Of a stretch of DNA of 11,334 nt, positions 1-11,334 are shown in pieces (positions within the stretch are counted from its first letter, which is position 1; each line of letters starts with the position of its first letter). The notes under the pieces are model-generated. The model was not told the origin of the DNA. It saw only the letters and a program-made list of their open reading frames with translations, and did no database searches. This stretch comes from a virus (taxonomy: Duplodnaviria > Heunggongvirae > Uroviricota > Caudoviricetes): IMG/VR virus record IMGVR_UViG_2551306674_000009; one strand, given 5' to 3'. The translations under genes were made by a program, and so were the position numbers.

Positions 1-200
1 TGTCAGTTATCATCTTCGGTTACGGTTATCGGCAGAACGCCCTGCCGCTGACAAGAGCTTATTTGCCTGACCAATCTACTTCACATGATAGATAACTATC
101 ATTTATAACATTTCATTGATTAGCCTTTATTTTTCATTGCGTTACAAATAACAGCCCTGTCAAAAACAGCGAAATTAACTACACCATTAACTACACCGTT

Positions 201-240
201 TCACGAACAATATCGAACAACCACGAACAAAGATCAACAC
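201..240 (+). repeat. Four tandem 10-bp units (tcacgaacaa / tatcgaacaa / ccacgaacaa / agatcaacac), consensus NNACGAACAA
   Basis: Read directly; 10-bp helical phasing; same motif recurs at 9431-9460 and, inverted, at 513-526. Confidence 0.6.
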
Positions 241-330: not shown

Positions 331-580
331 GGTTAAATGTTAACCGCTGCCCTGTTAACATTTTTACCAAAAAGGTAGTTAACATTTTTTGCACGTAACC
401 AGACGAATCATAAAGACAAAATCAACAACAACGCTTCATCAGGCAGTTAACATGTTAACTACTACGAAACGGTAATTTTTTCTCTGCGTGAGAGGGGGCG
501 CGGTGTCCAGCTTGTTCGTTGTTCGTAGCTAACCACTCCCCCCCATACCGGATTTTTTTTCCGGTTAACAGTTAATCAGG
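331..580. promoter_or_regulatory. Cluster of GTTAAC(A)-containing motifs including a perfect 16-bp palindrome AGTTAACATGTTAACT (446-461)
   Basis: At least six TGTTAAC-type motifs within 250 bp (331-345, 352-366, 378-391, 446-461, 561-577) plus hairpins ccccgatatgggg (289-301) and accgga-T8-ccggt (547-565). Confidence 0.35.
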
Positions 581-1530: not shown

Positions 1531-1735
1531 GGGTCCTTCCTGGAATTATGGCCCGTTACGGGGCGGCGACCTCGCGGATTTTATCTGTTTATGAAAATTT
1601 TCTGGCAAAAGTCAGATCCGTTCTTCTTCTCTGTAACAGATTGTTTAACAATGAAAACATTAAAAAAAGAAAGGATCTGACACGAGGCATTTTAGCCAGA
1701 AAATGCCATTATCAGATCCTTTCTCATTTTTGTTC
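1531..1735 (+). other. Lambda-type cos site (cosQ-like, cosN 1561-1572, cosB with three R-like elements)
   Basis: Exact lambda cohesive-end 12-mer GGGCGGCGACCT at 1561-1572, followed by cgcggattttatctgtttatgaaaatttt (compare lambda CGCGGGTTTTCGCTATTTATGAAAATTTT); R-like elements at 1614-1626 (+), 1667-1686 (inverted) and 1714-1725 (+), core cAGATCC(g/t)TTCT. Confidence 0.75.
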
Positions 1736-2423: not shown

Positions 2424-2470
2424 CGCGAGGTCGCCGCCCCGTAACGGGTCCATATGCCGGAAAGGACCCG
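2424..2470 (-). other. Second cosN-containing repeat (cosQ-like + cosN + start of cosB), inverted relative to 1531-1577
   Basis: Reverse complement of GGGCGGCGACCT at 2428-2439; on the minus strand reads cgggtcctttccggcatatggacccgttacg|GGGCGGCGACCT|CGCGCGTTTTCACTATTTATGA, closely matching the remembered lambda right-end/left-end junction. No R-like elements between it and terS. Confidence 0.7.
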
Positions 2471-3272: not shown

Positions 3273-4328
3273 TTAAGCAATTTTGACAGTAACAAATTTG
3301 CGAATATCTGCCGGAACCGGCTGCGGTGCGCTGTGCGTCTGCACGTACTCAATCGCCGGATCGCCGTCCTCAATCCAGTTTTTCGGGTAGTACATGTTTT
3401 GCGTTGCCTTCGTTCTTACTGCGTCCTGATCCATAATCGCACCATAGGCCACCAGCCCTTTATTGTTGGTGTTGCCCAGGACCAGCAAATCAGGTTCAAG
3501 GAAATATTTTTCTGTGCCGTCGCTGTCGGCGTATTTGCCGGAATAGACGATAAGGGCAATATCGCCCAGATAGCCTTTAAAGCTCACCACTTCGCCCAGG
3601 TTTTTACAGGCCAGTTCGGCGGCGGATTCTGAACCACGGGAAAGATCGTACAGCTCACGGAATTTTTTAAAGCTGCGTAACGTGCGCCATACCTCAGCGC
3701 CCATAATCATGACGTTTGCGGGGCAACCAGCCTGATCAGCATAAAGCTCGATGTCATAGATTGGATCGTGCATCTCTTTATCCTGCTCGGACCATTTTTT
3801 ACCCTTGGCCTGCTCTATGATGCAGTTTTCCGGTATTTTCCAGTCTATTTCATAGCGTTCTATGCCTTCGCCCTCAATAATGTTTTTTCCGGTCGTTATC
3901 GCATTCACCGCCAGCCATTCCACGCGCGCTTTAATGGCGTTTACCTGGCGGCGCATGTTGCCAGTAATCAGGCGCATACGTCGGTAGGTAGGGTCGTTAA
4001 GCTGTGCCGGATCTTCTCCAGCCATGCGCATGATGGTTTTTGTTGGATCGATTTCGTGCTTTGGCTTCATGTAGCCAGGTTTAATCGTGCTGGTTTCGTA
4101 TCCTTTATCGCGCTGTACCTGGCTGCCAACCATAGGCGAACAAAACGCCGACATGGTGACTTCTTCAATGTCCAGGGTATCCAGCATGATGTTTTGGGTG
4201 CTGAATGTCGCCACGTTCGGGAAAAACAGCGTGATAAACAGCGGACTGAATTTAAATTCCGCAATATCCCCGCGATTCAGGTACGCAAAAAGCTGGTTAG
4301 TGTTAAGTGCCGTTGCTTTGCCTGCCAT
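3273..4328 (-). CDS. Major capsid protein, lambda gpE-like
   Basis: 351 aa; conserved blocks versus lambda gpE (FKFSPLF, PGYMKPKHEIDP, DPTYRRMRLI, YPKNWIEDGDPAIEY...SAP). Confidence 0.9.
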   Translation of the reverse strand: MAGKATALNTNQLFAYLNRGDIAEFKFSPLFITLFFPNVATFSTQNIMLDTLDIEEVTMSAFCSPMVGSQVQRDKGYETSTIKPGYMKPKHEIDPTKTIMRMAGEDPAQLNDPTYRRMRLITGNMRRQVNAIKARVEWLAVNAITTGKNIIEGEGIERYEIDWKIPENCIIEQAKGKKWSEQDKEMHDPIYDIELYADQAGCPANVMIMGAEVWRTLRSFKKFRELYDLSRGSESAAELACKNLGEVVSFKGYLGDIALIVYSGKYADSDGTEKYFLEPDLLVLGNTNNKGLVAYGAIMDQDAVRTKATQNMYYPKNWIEDGDPAIEYVQTHSAPQPVPADIRKFVTVKIA

Positions 4329-4741: not shown

Positions 4742-4763
4742 AAAAAAGCCGGATTGCTCCGGC
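4742..4763 (-). terminator. Rho-independent terminator after the 74-aa gene
   Basis: Minus strand: gccggagcaatccggc followed by TTTTTT; same sequence family as the terminators at 2471-2494 and 5105-5128. Confidence 0.7.
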
Positions 4764-4783
4764 TATGTGTGCTGTGTGCTGGC

Positions 4784-5104: not shown

Positions 5105-5128
5105 AATAAAAGCCGGATTTCTCCGGCT
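5105..5128 (-). terminator. Rho-independent terminator ending the replication/regulatory operon
   Basis: Minus strand: agccggagaaatccggct followed by TTTTATT, directly after the PerC-like gene stop. Confidence 0.65.
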
Positions 5129-5134
5129 GTTTGA

Positions 5135-5969: not shown

Positions 5970-6165
5970 ACCTCTCACTTTTTCGCCTCACTTTTTCAAG
6001 CGTCTCACTTCGTCGCAGTTGGGATTTTCGGTTTTTCTATGTGTGTGTTTCATAAGTATTTTTTTACCCCTCACTTTTGAGGATGTATACAGGTCGAAAA
6101 GTGAGGGAGAGCGGGCTAATTTTGGCCCTCTTTCTATCCCCCTCGCTTTTGCTCCTCACTTTTAT
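5970..6165. repeat. Putative replication origin: CTCACTTTT iterons flanking an AT-rich stretch
   Basis: Copies at 5974-5982, 5987-5995, 6004-6010 (degenerate), 6070-6078, 6097-6105 (inverted), 6142-6150 (degenerate), 6155-6163; AT-rich 6020-6068; immediately 3' of the rep gene. Confidence 0.65.
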
Positions 6166-7562
6166 AGCGGCGCTACATCATCCCCATCGATACGAATAAC
6201 CCCATCTTTTTCCAGCTTGTACAGCCAGCGCCGGAAGTTTTTCATTTCATACCCCAGCTTTTTCATGTCATCACGTAACAGCGGGATCGTGCACTTGTCG
6301 CCGTTCTGTGTGCGTGAACGGATGCACCCCCATAGCGCGGTATGGTTTTCCGTCTTGTTCCCTGCCTCCTCGATGCGCTCCAGTTCAACAGGAGGGCGCG
6401 GATCATCCACCACCACCAGCGACGTGATTAATTCACCGTCAGCGTCGGTAAAAAGCTCCACCACGCGTAAGTCATATGCGGCTTCTTTGAGTTCCTCCGC
6501 GTCCTTCATTTTGGTGCATGAGATAACCAGCGCTTCGCTTCCTGCGTCCTCCCTGCGTATCCGGTATTCAGCATCCAGCGAAGCACGAAATGCACTGGAA
6601 CCGCGCGCGCCTTTCGTCTCATCCTTGCCGGAATGGTGAACCACCAGCACCGTGGCCCCTGTGCGTCGTTTCAGTTCGTCACAACCACGGATAAACGCCC
6701 CCATATCACGGGAATCATTTTCATCATTCCCACCAAAGCAACGCGCCAGCGTATCCAGAATAATCATGCGTACAGGTTTACCCGTTTCCCGCTCCACCTG
6801 ACGGGCAGCGATAACCATTTCATCAACATCAAGCGGGGCAGCCGGAAAGATGGGGCGGTTTACCAGATACAGATTTTTCACCTGCTCATCGTGCACAACC
6901 TCCCAGGCTTTTACACGACGCGGAACACCTATACCGCCTTCACCAACCACATAGAGAACCGCACCATGTGCAACCCTGCGGCCTCCCCACTGGCGACCAG
7001 TGGCAACATGGCACGCCCACGATCCGGCAAGGAATGATTTATAGGACCCGCTAGCCCCGTATATGCTGCATAGCGATACCGCCGGAATAATCCCCTTAAC
7101 CACGTAATCCAGTTGCGTGTCGTATCCGGTAGATCCAACGCTCATCGGTAGCGTGGTTTTTCGCTGGTGGTTTTTTTCTTCCGCCGGCTCTTTCCCGCGC
7201 ACCCGTTCCAGGTATTCGCGCCAGTTCTCCCGCATATGGCTGTGCATCCCTTCGGGGTAATAATTCGCATCAGTTACACCCGCCGCCGCCAGCTTGTGCG
7301 CAATGGCATTAATATTTGATGGCCTGATGTGGCCTGCCTTGTACAGCCGGACACAATAGCGCCCCTCGTCGATGATTCTCAGGTCTGCCAGTTCATCCAG
7401 TTGATCATCAGCCAGCACAACGGGAGGCACATTATCGCCAGCCAGTCGCCCGTCCTGTTCCTGCCACTGTTTCGCATGTGCCCAGGCATCACTACCCGCA
7501 AAAATAATGACTTCGGTCATCTTGTCGTAAGGCTGTTTTTTTAAGTTCGGTGCGCTTTTCAT
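6162..7562 (-). CDS. Replication initiator/helicase, RepA-like (AAA_25-type RecA-fold ATPase)
   Basis: 466 aa; Walker A GASGSYKS, Walker B-like MIILDTLARCF, VLVVHHSGKD; C-terminal winged-helix-like region; ATGA overlap with the upstream ORF. Confidence 0.8.
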   Translation of the reverse strand: MKSAPNLKKQPYDKMTEVIIFAGSDAWAHAKQWQEQDGRLAGDNVPPVVLADDQLDELADLRIIDEGRYCVRLYKAGHIRPSNINAIAHKLAAAGVTDANYYPEGMHSHMRENWREYLERVRGKEPAEEKNHQRKTTLPMSVGSTGYDTQLDYVVKGIIPAVSLCSIYGASGSYKSFLAGSWACHVATGRQWGGRRVAHGAVLYVVGEGGIGVPRRVKAWEVVHDEQVKNLYLVNRPIFPAAPLDVDEMVIAARQVERETGKPVRMIILDTLARCFGGNDENDSRDMGAFIRGCDELKRRTGATVLVVHHSGKDETKGARGSSAFRASLDAEYRIRREDAGSEALVISCTKMKDAEELKEAAYDLRVVELFTDADGELITSLVVVDDPRPPVELERIEEAGNKTENHTALWGCIRSRTQNGDKCTIPLLRDDMKKLGYEMKNFRRWLYKLEKDGVIRIDGDDVAPL

Positions 7563-8555: not shown

Positions 8556-8745
8556 AGGTTTCCCCCTGGCGAATACGGGCGGCGAATACAGCAACACAAC
8601 CTGACGGGCAACGGTTACGCGCTTCGCGTTCCGTCCAGGCGGTTACGTGGATGATTTGAGATTCTCCGGCACTCAGTGCCAGAAAACGCCACACAAAGGC
8701 CGTTTGTGTGTGTACAAGGTGTGGGGTATGATTTACGGCAACCAT
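8545..8745 (-). CDS. Hypothetical protein (66 aa), first gene of the replication operon
   Basis: ATG with GAGGAG SD at optimal spacing; preceded by a structured leader and the divergent promoter region. Confidence 0.55.
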   Translation of the reverse strand: MVAVNHTPHLVHTQTAFVWRFLALSAGESQIIHVTAWTEREARNRCPSGCVAVFAARIRQGETYAQ

Positions 8746-8819
8746 AACGGCTCCTCGTTTACGTTGTTGGTTAGAAGCCCGTTGGTGTTCATAGCGCCAG
8801 CGGGCTTTGCTTTTGTGGT

Positions 8820-8880
8820 GTCATTGGTATACATTGTCACCGTAAGGCCATTATTATACTCGAGGTATACAATGTCAACC
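8820..8880. promoter_or_regulatory. Divergent promoter/operator region between the RHH gene and the replication operon
   Basis: Two direct copies of GGTATACAWTGTCA(A)CC (8826-8840, 8864-8879), each overlapping a -35-like hexamer; plus strand TTGTCA-N15-TATACT, minus strand TTGACA-N14-TATAAT. Confidence 0.5.
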
Positions 8881-9048
8881 AATGACAACAAAAAGGAAAG
8901 GTTTTCCGTACAGCTTCGTCTTGATGCTGACTTATTCGAACGCTTAAGCATCGCCATGAAAGAAGATGGCGATGATAACCGCTCAGGATGGATAAAAAGG
9001 CTTTTGCGCCGTGAGTTGGATAAACGCGGCATAGAATCAAAAGAATAA
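8872..9048 (+). CDS. Ribbon-helix-helix (Arc/MetJ/CopG-like) DNA-binding protein, candidate repressor
   Basis: 58 aa: KERFSVQLRLDADLFERLSIAMKEDGDDNRSGWIKRLLRREL fits the beta-alphaA-alphaB RHH pattern; GAGGT SD; divergent from the replication operon. Confidence 0.7.
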   Translation: MSTNDNKKERFSVQLRLDADLFERLSIAMKEDGDDNRSGWIKRLLRRELDKRGIESKE

Positions 9049-9105
9049 TTACTATCAGCGCCGTGGCGTGAGGTACTACGGCGCATTGCTTTACAGGGCA
9101 GTATC

Positions 9106-9333
9106 ATGACCAACAACACACTATTACCAATACAAGACACGCAAACCCAAGATGATGAAATCATCCGGCAAAGGCAGTCAGAAGCCTGCGCCAGAGTTGA
9201 GGAAGAACTAACCAGAACAAAAATACCACCACCAGCGCCGCGCTTAATGCCACCAGAAAAATTTGCCCTTGAAGATTTTGTCGAGAAATACCCACGGCGG
9301 TTAAAAGCCACTAAAAACCGACCGCCTGGCTGA
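9106..9333 (+). CDS. Hypothetical protein (75 aa), possible second gene after the RHH gene
   Basis: ORF only; weak SD; no recognisable family. Confidence 0.25.
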   Translation: MTNNTLLPIQDTQTQDDEIIRQRQSEACARVEEELTRTKIPPPAPRLMPPEKFALEDFVEKYPRRLKATKNRPPG

Positions 9334-9430
9334 TAGCCTTGTCCACCAGCTACGGCGGTGCTAAGATTGAAAGCTGCATAAGTCATGAAAATAAACTCCT
9401 TAGCGGTGCATACGCGCCGCTTCTTTTCTT

Positions 9431-9460
9431 CACGAACAACCGCGAACAAGTACAAACAAA
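9431..9460 (+). repeat. Three tandem 10-bp units (tcacgaacaa / ccgcgaacaa / gtacaaacaa)
   Basis: Same NNACGAACAA motif and 10-bp phasing as 201-240; lies just 3' of alpA. Confidence 0.55.
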
Positions 9461-9491: not shown

Positions 9492-9686
9492 TTAATTGAC
9501 GCGTTCGCGGTTTTTGACCCAGGCGACAACCTCAGACTTAACCCAGCCAACCGAACGACCGCCAAGACTGATACGGGAGGGAAAGCGGCCTTGTTTTTCC
9601 ATCTCGTAACGAGTTGTGCGGCAAACGCCTGTTAGCTCTCTGCATTCTTTTTCGCGGATTACACGATCTTCATTTATTTCGCGCAT
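9492..9686 (-). CDS. alpA: AlpA-family phage transcriptional regulator / excisionase-like protein
   Basis: 64 aa with AlpA-type motif (CRTTRYEMEKQGRFPSRISLGGRSVGWVKSEVVAWV); adjacent to and co-oriented with the integrase. Confidence 0.75.
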   Translation of the reverse strand: MREINEDRVIREKECRELTGVCRTTRYEMEKQGRFPSRISLGGRSVGWVKSEVVAWVKNRERVN

Positions 9687-10020
9687 AAAAAGCCCTACAT
9701 AAAATTACGTATAGAAATTTTTGTTTCGCTGTGGATATACGGAAAGAGATTACTTCTTAGCTTTTCTTACCTCTTAAATTGAAGGCGTAACCTTGCCAAA
9801 AGCTATGCTCGCCAAGGTTCGCAAGGGTTCGTTGTTGTTCATAAAATCGTTGCACACCAGGAAAGACAATTCAACATTAAAATTCCCTCTACAGTGAGGA
9901 ATAATTAAAAAAACAAATTAAAACAGTCACATAAAAGCATACACATTGAAATAAAGGAAAATTTTAAAACTCAAGTAGACAATCGCTGTTTTCAAATTTT
10001 TTCAATACTTGACACATATA

Positions 10021-10095: not shown

Positions 10096-11334
10096 TCAAG
10101 AATTTTGAGAGTAAATTCGCGGGGTCATAACAACGATTTTTTCATCATTGTTCTGGAGAAGCTCGAGACGCTCAACCCATAGATTAAGAGCGTCACGTTT
10201 TGCATCGAGATAACGGGAGTGATTATAGACTCGTTGCATTCCTGGCAACTGGTGCGCGGTTAGCTGCTCCACTACATGAGGATCCACGCCTAAATCGTTC
10301 AGCATCGTTGTAAACGTGTGCCGGATGTCGTGCAACGTCCAGGGGGCTTGATTAATACGTCTGTGTGCCGTTCTTCCGTACTCTGATACGGATGATTGCC
10401 CTTTCAGTTCTCCGAGCAATAATCCCGTGTGCCTGTTCTGCTCCACCAGCTTCGTTACGAACGGCAAGATCGCTTCCGGTATTGGCCTGAATATTGCTAC
10501 CTTCGTTTTGCTGTGTTCTTTCGGCACGGTCCAGAGCATTTCTTTAAAATCCCATTCCTGGAGCTCAGAGCGTCTTAGCTCAGTGGTACGACATCCGAAG
10601 ACAATCAGGAGGCGAATCAGGGCGCTGTAGTACGGTGGGTAAATTTTTTCATCCAGGGCGCGGAGTAATTCCCCAAGCTCCTTGTTTGTTAGTACGCGCT
10701 CGCTTATTTCTGCTTTTTTCCCAACATCACCTACAACCATATCATCTAGAACGTTGGTAATTGCGTAGCGTCGTTTGCGGCAGTACTTAAGCGCCTGCTT
10801 GCATACCTGTAACAAAAATCCTGCTGATACCGGATTACGCTTAGCAAGCTGATCAAAACAGGTCAGCCAGTGGCGTAGCTCGCATTTTTCCAGCGGCATA
10901 GCACCAATCTGGCTGATTATGTGTGTATTGATCCGGCTCTTCAGAGATTCGTAGTCTGTGCGCTTTTCCTTCGCGTACGATTCAAGCCAGTAAGTGAGCG
11001 CTTCCTTAACCGTAACAGGTGATAACGCTTCCTGTACGGTGTGATTAAGCTCATGGCGTGGATTTTTCCCCTCAGCAAGCCAGGCGCGACACTGCGCCGC
11101 TTTTTCCCTGGCTGCTTTCAGGCTCAAATCAGGATAATTTCCCAGCCTCAGACGTTCAGGGGATACCTTCCTGCCTGTTCCGGCCCTGTAAGTGAAATAC
11201 CAGGTTAACAGGCCATTGGTTGAATGCCTTACGCTAAGGTTGCCACCATCATTAAAAAAGGTGTTTTTTGTGGTTGGTGATCCGCTTAATTTTCGTAAAA
11301 GAGTGTCGCTAAGTCTATGAATTGCCCTGCTCAT
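10096..11334 (-). CDS. int: Tyrosine integrase, P4-type
   Basis: 412 aa; N-terminal arm-binding-like region, C-terminal catalytic residues (HDIRHTF ... VYNHSRY). Start codon is at the last bases of the window, so the true 5' end could lie beyond the edge. Confidence 0.85.
   Translation of the reverse strand: MSRAIHRLSDTLLRKLSGSPTTKNTFFNDGGNLSVRHSTNGLLTWYFTYRAGTGRKVSPERLRLGNYPDLSLKAAREKAAQCRAWLAEGKNPRHELNHTVQEALSPVTVKEALTYWLESYAKEKRTDYESLKSRINTHIISQIGAMPLEKCELRHWLTCFDQLAKRNPVSAGFLLQVCKQALKYCRKRRYAITNVLDDMVVGDVGKKAEISERVLTNKELGELLRALDEKIYPPYYSALIRLLIVFGCRTTELRRSELQEWDFKEMLWTVPKEHSKTKVAIFRPIPEAILPFVTKLVEQNRHTGLLLGELKGQSSVSEYGRTAHRRINQAPWTLHDIRHTFTTMLNDLGVDPHVVEQLTAHQLPGMQRVYNHSRYLDAKRDALNLWVERLELLQNNDEKIVVMTPRIYSQNS

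Follow-up and report, generated by a model that had tools for sequence, protein, structure and literature searches.

Small winged-helix recombination directionality factors (RDFs) such as lambda Xis (X1-X1.5-X2 filament), P2 Cox, KplE1 TorI and P4 Vis also regulate transcription. Subunits of the excisionase RdfS and of the regulator BldC line up head to tail on DNA, each taking up about one helical turn, and RdfS binds attP beside an integrase (Int) arm site and also its own promoter (PMC11963761). In phage-inducible chromosomal islands (PICIs) of Gram-negative bacteria the master inducer is AlpA, and whether it acts as activator, excisionase or both is still debated. For the island EcCICFT073 it is reported that helper-phage infection raises alpA transcription, that AlpA expression triggers int-dependent excision and replication, and that AlpA activates a PalpA reporter but not Pint (PMC6092414). 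In PICMI, AlpA is necessary and sufficient for excision (PMC10803314). Helper-embedded PICIs (HE-PICIs) carry a doubled attP motif, tgTGTATTGCa x2, described by the Williams laboratory, who did not find it in other PICIs and left its binder among Int arm domains, AlpA and another protein (PMC10111431). It is thus known already that phased repeats are bound by excisionase-type proteins and that AlpA is a PICI inducer. In the searchable literature we found no description of AlpA operators or of the CGAACAA heptamers studied here; the accessible part of PMC6092414 describes no operator or att-arm site for AlpA, and searching the literature for the motif strings and for PDB 8C3T brought up no relevant paper.

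The window analyzed here, meaning the whole 11,334-nucleotide stretch of DNA, is by its gene order and gene types an EcCICFT073-type PICI, inserted between clpS and cspD. Gene order is common to the window and the EcCICFT073 locus, and so are the gene types, except for the primase-type replication protein of EcCICFT073. Nearly all genes lie on the minus strand. A P4-type tyrosine integrase with an N-terminal arm-DNA-binding domain (int, 10096-11334, minus strand; PF00589 and PF13356) is separated by 410 bp from alpA (9492-9686, minus strand). The call of the latter gene in the earlier note holds, its 64-aa product matching Pfam PF05930 (Phage_AlpA) with E = 4.7e-16. The window also encodes a DUF4222 protein, PerC, a RepA-family helicase (rep, 6162-7562), a lambda-E-type major capsid protein (3273-4328), a head decoration protein and a Nu1-like small terminase (1752-2306), and no tail or lysis genes. 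It therefore has what defines a PICI: co-directional int, alpA and rep, a size of ~10-15 kb, its own att site, captured head and packaging genes, and a helper cos. The last is present as two exact copies of lambda cosN, GGGCGGCGACCT, at 1561-1572 (plus strand) and 2428-2439 (minus strand), which are inverted, bracket the Nu1-like gene and lie within a 72-nt inverted repeat (1530-1601/2399-2470) that is 79% complementary. Two cosN sites are reported for EcCICFT073 as well.

The nearest annotated relatives occupy the clpS-cspD site in E. coli SCU-106, 042 and others. Relatives were gathered from an E. coli collection and by exact-protein look-ups; a scan of genome contigs with AlpA yielded two distant loci only. 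We examined 15 related islands from E. coli, Salmonella and Erwinia, situated at six chromosomal sites and including EcCICFT073 (L022). Heptamer tables were made for 14 loci, the window and 13 relatives, while L023 and L024 were read directly instead. Between alpA and the far island end, the genes are mosaic among the relatives.

The exact heptamer CGAACAA occurs nine times on the two strands of the window, against 2.19 expected, and none of 200 shuffles reached nine. The copies start at 204, 214, 224 (plus), 512, 519 (minus), 2370, 4137, 9433 and 9443 (plus), so that seven of the nine fall in three clusters (204/214/224, 512/519 and 9433/9443). Three pairs are spaced at exactly 10 bp, and not even one such pair arose in 1000 dinucleotide-preserving shuffles. 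The density of the heptamer is 0.79 per kb in the window and 0.107 per kb, 7.4 times lower, in 187 kb of E. coli chromosome next to related islands, where no 10-bp-phased pair was found. The phased CGAACAA arrays are therefore real and non-random. The earlier note had described them at 201-240 and 9431-9460, and counts, shuffles and flanks all agree with it; a similar motif density in host DNA, which it had named as grounds for dropping the idea, is not seen in these flanks.

We refer to the heptamer and its variants as motif B. The array at 201-240 (plus strand) consists of three CGAACAA units and a degenerate TCAACAC at 10-bp spacing (204/214/224/234). The array at 9431-9460 (plus strand), 3' of alpA, reads CGAACAA, CGAACAA, CAAACAA (9433/9443/9453). 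Over 32 nt each, 200-231 and 9429-9460 are 81% identical, with the differences mostly in the 3-nt spacers. A third array lies upstream of alpA at 9805-9841 (minus strand) and reads TGAACAA, CGAACCC, CGAACCT, CGAGCAT, again at 10-bp spacing; the copy recorded before as a single one near 9832-9842 is indeed a unit, but one of these four. All three arrays consist of co-oriented repeats about one helical turn apart, as RDF and excisionase sites do. The inverted copies placed by the earlier note at 513-526 exist as a tandem CGAACAA pair at 512-525 (minus strand) but are not helically phased, since their spacing is 7 bp. In most relatives the pair is lost or degraded: L003 has a mutation in one unit, and L008-L012 lack the segment altogether. 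The pair is thus probably incidental. The lone copies at 2370 and 4137 are within chance expectation, and we count neither the pair nor the 2370 copy, both listed earlier, as parts of the system.

Comparison with the empty chromosomal site, the route to the att core that had been proposed, places the core at 92-102. The empty K-12 clpS-cspD spacer matches window positions 1-106 only, the chromosome upstream of clpS ends at 92-102, and island DNA starts immediately to the right. The 11-mer at this position, ATAACTATCAT, is shared with attB and attR and is found at both ends of the clpS-site islands (L002, L003, L008-L011). A G/A difference immediately left of ATAACTATCAT assigns the crossover to this block. 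With the core at 92-102, the 201-240 array lies inside the attL arm, about 110-140 bp from the core, which bears out the suggestion that it marks the recombination arm. The array is kept in all clpS-site relatives. It is directly preceded, 7 bp away, by a doubled 12-bp motif that had escaped notice before (ATTAACTACACC x2, 174-197, plus strand; motif A), which occurs once in the window.

Because attR lies past the right end of the window, the int-side arm was read in relatives whose int and alpA are 98% identical to those of the window. Outward from the int start codon, this arm has ATTAACTACACC ATTGACTACACC, 16 bp of other sequence, the heptamers CGAACTG, CGAACAA and CGAACAA at 10-bp spacing, and an A/T-rich ATCAWnnnnATA element. 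The core-proximal part follows, with CGAACAC, CGAACAC, 6 bp and a conserved TGATA block; the crossover 11-mer starts 12 bp past the last int-side motif B unit. In the reconstructed attP, five motif B centers lie on the int side, at -112, -102, -92, -29 and -19, and three across the core, at +110, +120 and +130; the doubled motif A is centered at about -143 and +88. All 15 related islands have motif A x2 with three or four phased motif B heptamers on both att arms, a further pair or triplet of heptamers close to the core on the int side, and a motif B array upstream of alpA. As is usual for RDF sites, the 201-240 array is thus located on an att arm near proposed Int arm-type sites (motif A), and the same is true of the int-side arm of the relatives.

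Two further observations concern the attachment sites. The ATCAWnnnnATA element, read at L002 25855-25885 and at equivalent positions in L001, L013, L015, L023 and L024, is near the IHF consensus, overlaps a TATAAT-like hexamer and lies 18-19 bp past the last distal int-side heptamer in every island. An IHF bend site is one possible role, an AlpA-dependent outward promoter another. At the bioD-uvrB site (L012 3130-3160 and 18010-18030; L023), the integrase is 95-98% identical to the clpS-site enzyme and the core differs from that at clpS by one or two bases (ACTGTCAT vs ACTATCAT), indicating that one integrase lineage uses two attB sites.

Among type-1 arrays that are homologous but not identical, identity is 94% at heptamer positions 1-5, 74% at positions 6-7 and 44% in the spacers, with the phase always kept. 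This contrast between heptamer and spacer is the pattern expected of protein-binding sites. It also makes it highly improbable that the repeats are non-functional products of slippage or duplication, an explanation that would suit the incidental-looking 512-525 pair and the lone copies but neither the well-conserved units with their fixed phase nor the lack of a phased pair in any of the 1000 shuffles; moreover, the combination of motifs A and B recurs across genera.

Phased direct repeats are also typical of replication-origin iterons, and the left island end is non-coding and rich in repeats, so that iterons or packaging (cosB-type) sites might be considered. We regard this as barely plausible. 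Islands with the same heptamers encode replication proteins of three unrelated types (RepA helicase, primase and DUF927), which makes motif B independent of the replication protein; some of these islands have a small-terminase gene and others lack one, and packaging genes show no link to heptamer type. Iterons would adjoin rep and track the initiator, whereas the arrays are 2-6 kb from rep. The lambda cosN copies at 1561-1572 and 2428-2439 are likewise far from the arrays. The origin of PICIs has been placed downstream of pri/rep (PMC10111431), and the window has a separate repeat set there. This set comprises three copies of TTTTnCnCCTCACTTTT directly downstream of the RepA-family helicase (5979-5995, 6062-6078 and 6147-6163; spacing 83 and 85 bp), which the published origin position makes candidate iterons.

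Natural swaps among the islands bear on which protein reads which motif. Between L011/L012 and L013, AlpA is 93% identical, its DNA-binding part fully so, and Int residues 1-100 are 62% identical; motif A changes from TTAACTACACC to CTGACCACACA, and motif B is kept as CGAACAA/CAAACAA on both arms. The spacers differ, so the arms are not mere copies of each other. With the divergent Int arm domain of L013 and L024, motif A is ACTGACCACACA x2. The AlpA of L024 is a related type-1 allele (81% identity to that of the window), and this island has motifs A and B as in L013. The reverse is seen between the window type and L001/L014/L022, where Int residues 1-100 are 77-80% identical and AlpA 56-61% (58% for EcCICFT073 AlpA against that of the window). 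Here motif A is unchanged and motif B becomes G-n-A-A-C-A-A, the first heptamer position being C in 38 of 43 units of the window type and G in 25 of 31 units of the other. The third contrast is between L013 and L015, which share a chromosomal site: AlpA is 58% and Int residues 1-100 are 68% identical, motif A differs by one base, and motif B becomes T/C-R-A-A-C-n-A. In all three contrasts the heptamer follows the AlpA allele rather than the integrase, although the independent lineages compared are few, with about four types of AlpA and three or four of the Int arm domain. The heptamer types differ modestly, the A-A-C centre being common to all. Type-2 AlpA combined with the divergent Int type was not found, all type-2 alpA hits being linked to one and the same Int lineage. 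Based on these swaps, motif B most likely represents AlpA sites and motif A the sites of the Int arm domain, in line with the AlpA or excisionase reading offered earlier.

Integrase arm sites had been offered before as the other possible reading of the arrays. If the heptamers were arm-type sites bound by the Arm-DNA-bind_3 domain, the copies near alpA would let Int regulate alpA. The heptamers are indeed direct repeats on both attP arms and distinct from core sites, as arm-type sites are; the island Int carries an arm-binding domain; and as this domain is 55-80% identical across the islands, the common A-A-C core could reflect conserved Int recognition. We nevertheless consider this unlikely, because the heptamers do not track the Int arm domain, while the doubled 12-bp motif at 174-197 does. 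The heptamers are unchanged at 62% arm-domain identity (L013 and L024 vs L011), where the predicted beta-strand residues are different, and they change where the arm domain is 77-80% identical but AlpA differs, which arm sites should not do. With four half-sites per attP, the doubled motif A also matches an Int tetramer, and arrays at the alpA promoter fit the published self-activation by AlpA, not a known function of Int.

A further candidate reader is another alpA-linked island protein (PerC-like, RHH/YlcI-like or Icd-like) or a host nucleoid protein, in which case AlpA would act elsewhere. Association was checked for AlpA, Int, Rep and one YlcI protein, so that other small genes near alpA could be linked to it. 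However, gene content beyond alpA is mosaic, yet the heptamer type is constant within an AlpA type; an identical YlcI/YnfO protein (WP_000190587.1) occurs with both motif B types; and allele-specific heptamers in a single species would be left unexplained by a host factor. Such a reader is therefore quite unlikely. AlpA remains the sole protein that is present in every island and has a fold known to bind phased direct repeats.

By sequence, AlpA matches PDB 8C3T, an 'AlpA family' excisionase, with E = 2.7e-7. Its AlphaFold model (pLDDT 83) is a winged helix-turn-helix whose best PDB matches include again 8C3T, the GIsul2 excisionase (TM-score 0.78/0.88), and also RdfS excisionase, DNA-bound BldC (6AMA), Pukovnik Xis and TorI. 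The predicted fold is thus that of a winged-helix excisionase, encoded next to int as expected for an RDF. Our search of the literature on GIsul2 gave no binding-site information.

All 15 related islands have an equivalent of the array upstream of alpA, two to six units long; in EcCICFT073, six phased G-n-A-A-C-A-A units lie in the int-alpA spacer. In the window, the 9805-9841 array ends 5 nt before a candidate -35 element, TTGGCA (9799-9794), which is followed after a 17-nt spacer by a weak -10 element, TAAGAG (9776-9771). A strict consensus promoter scan called no minus-strand alpA promoter, and nothing in 1-700, so the candidate is a weak one that we infer. In L003, L011 and L012 both hexamers are kept while the promoter spacer diverges. 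The segment 9771-9799 (minus strand) looks like a weak, activator-dependent alpA promoter, and we propose 9805-9841 as an operator for AlpA self-activation. The view that the arrays are AlpA-responsive control points is supported by this position, as AlpA reportedly activates the alpA promoter in EcCICFT073 (PMC6092414). Several points speak against the assignment to AlpA. Motif B units overlap the region upstream of int, yet EcCICFT073 AlpA is reported to have left Pint unchanged (PMC6092414), and RDFs usually bind one att arm whereas motif B is on both. The distance between the alpA-upstream array and the start codon in type-2 islands, about 290-350 bp, is also large for a simple activator site.

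The array 3' of alpA begins 32 nt past the alpA stop codon. It is abutted by a terminator-like hairpin with a T run (9402-9431, plus strand; 8-pair stem with 6 GC pairs, tail TCTTTTCTTC), and hairpin and array are conserved together in L002, L008, L024 and L026. L002 and L008 have two units; in L024/L026 the array reads CGAACAA cga CGAACCA cca CAAAAAA, with units kept and spacers changed. It occurs only with alpA alleles ending in ...KNRERVN and is missing from most islands, a further point against the AlpA reading. We propose that 9431-9460 is a real, allele-specific extra AlpA operator. On the other side of the hairpin, two plus-strand genes converge on 9402-9431. One (8872-9048) encodes a 58-aa ribbon-helix-helix-like protein related to proteins annotated YlcI/YnfO in some islands, its conservation reaching Salmonella and Kosakonia at 35-41% identity; the other is a 75-aa ORF (9106-9333) conserved across genera. 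The strand choice for the ORFs of 8650-9390 rests on tblastn conservation, and Pfam and NCBIfam gave nothing decisive there. A minus-strand ORF at 8733-9386 has an odd low-complexity translation with no family match and is probably spurious. As the conserved plus-strand genes lie inside this doubtful ORF, alpA seems to be followed by a convergent gene pair and not by an operon partner.

Taken together, the comparison makes it fairly likely that the phased CGAACAA heptamers are recognition sites of the island's own AlpA, serving both excision and self-activation. AlpA monomers would line up head to tail, one to each helical turn, and build short filaments. Bound to the phased units of the PalpA-upstream array (9805-9841), AlpA would reinforce its own synthesis. 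It would then coat the heptamer arrays that flank the Int arm sites on attL and attR, as well as the units beside the core, and bend or stiffen the arms, so that Int bound at the doubled motif A could bridge to the core and excision would follow; at the att arms AlpA would thus play the role of an RDF. With the alpA allele of the window, AlpA on the 9431-9460 array may block transcription crossing the shared terminator, insulating alpA from convergent transcription. An extended version, in which AlpA filaments reading one heptamer code fire PalpA, remodel both arms, shield alpA as an activator-built insulator and separate co-resident PICIs, appears doubtful to us. If such a code were true, the difference at heptamer position 1 among AlpA alleles would insulate co-resident PICIs from each other's inducer, and it would amount to a reprogrammable specificity code among AlpA alleles.

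Compared with winged-helix RDFs (lambda Xis, P2 Cox, TorI, P4 Vis and RdfS), the arrays share co-oriented att-arm sites about one turn apart, beside proposed Int arm sites, to which a small winged-helix protein would bind; in contrast, the island arrays occupy both arms and the core-proximal position and, with one allele, also the region 3' of alpA. Mesorhizobium RdfS also acts at its own promoter, as we propose for AlpA, while RdfS and lambda Xis use largely indirect readout and the island heptamer is a clear short consensus (PMC11963761). BldC on the Streptomyces smeA-ssfA promoter is likewise a small MerR-like winged helix bound head to tail on direct repeats at one-turn spacing; unlike AlpA, with which its sequence identity is about 22%, it is a developmental regulator with no recombination role. 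EcCICFT073 (Fillol-Salom et al. 2018) belongs to the same island family and has the same layout with G-n-A-A-C-A-A heptamers, differing in AlpA allele and preferred heptamer. The Pseudomonas aeruginosa AlpA (element GGGACG) was discarded as a comparator: it is a much larger, non-homologous Q-like antiterminator with a different mechanism and only the name in common, which contacts DNA through residues 128-142 and loads onto RNA polymerase from one site located between -35 and -10.

HE-PICIs have the same integrase and AlpA family, and their doubled motif corresponds in arrangement to motif A, not to the CGAACAA arrays. Like motif A, it is a tandem pair of 12-bp period with two co-oriented copies placed asymmetrically about the attP centre, at 81 and 132 bp compared with about 88 and 143 for motif A; the sequence differs (PMC10111431). 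Our comparison extends the doubled-motif architecture from HE-PICIs to classical PICIs and suggests readers for both motifs, the natural swaps pointing to Int as the binder of the doubled attP motif. This gives a likely binder for the doubled motif of the integrase clade and a signature of PICI ends for annotation tools, and an allele-specific heptamer code at the att arms and PalpA makes the mode of AlpA directly testable. Should the assignment to AlpA be wrong, the arrays would still be a conserved part of attP architecture.

The E. coli K-12 element CP4-57 (L027), in which alpA is said to have been first named, has a doubled AGGCCCA of 12-bp period ~50 bp upstream of intA and two 10-bp-phased xxAACCA units directly upstream of alpA (792-810 and 3312-3328), which hints that the two-motif layout extends to P4-like cryptic prophages. 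Other repeats of the window were noted as well. GTTAACA/TGTTAAC occurs in 11 copies (1.3 expected), seven of them within the non-coding segment 338-570, which holds several palindromic GTTAAC pairs and is missing from many related islands. A 115-nt direct repeat (843-957/976-1090; 82% identical, 133-bp period) has a third, partial copy of its start at 679-702. Finally, the GC-rich hairpin motif AAAAGCCGGAttnCTCCGGC is present in three intergenic copies in the minus-strand operon (2475-2500, 4744-4769 and 5108-5133), which may be terminators or processing sites.
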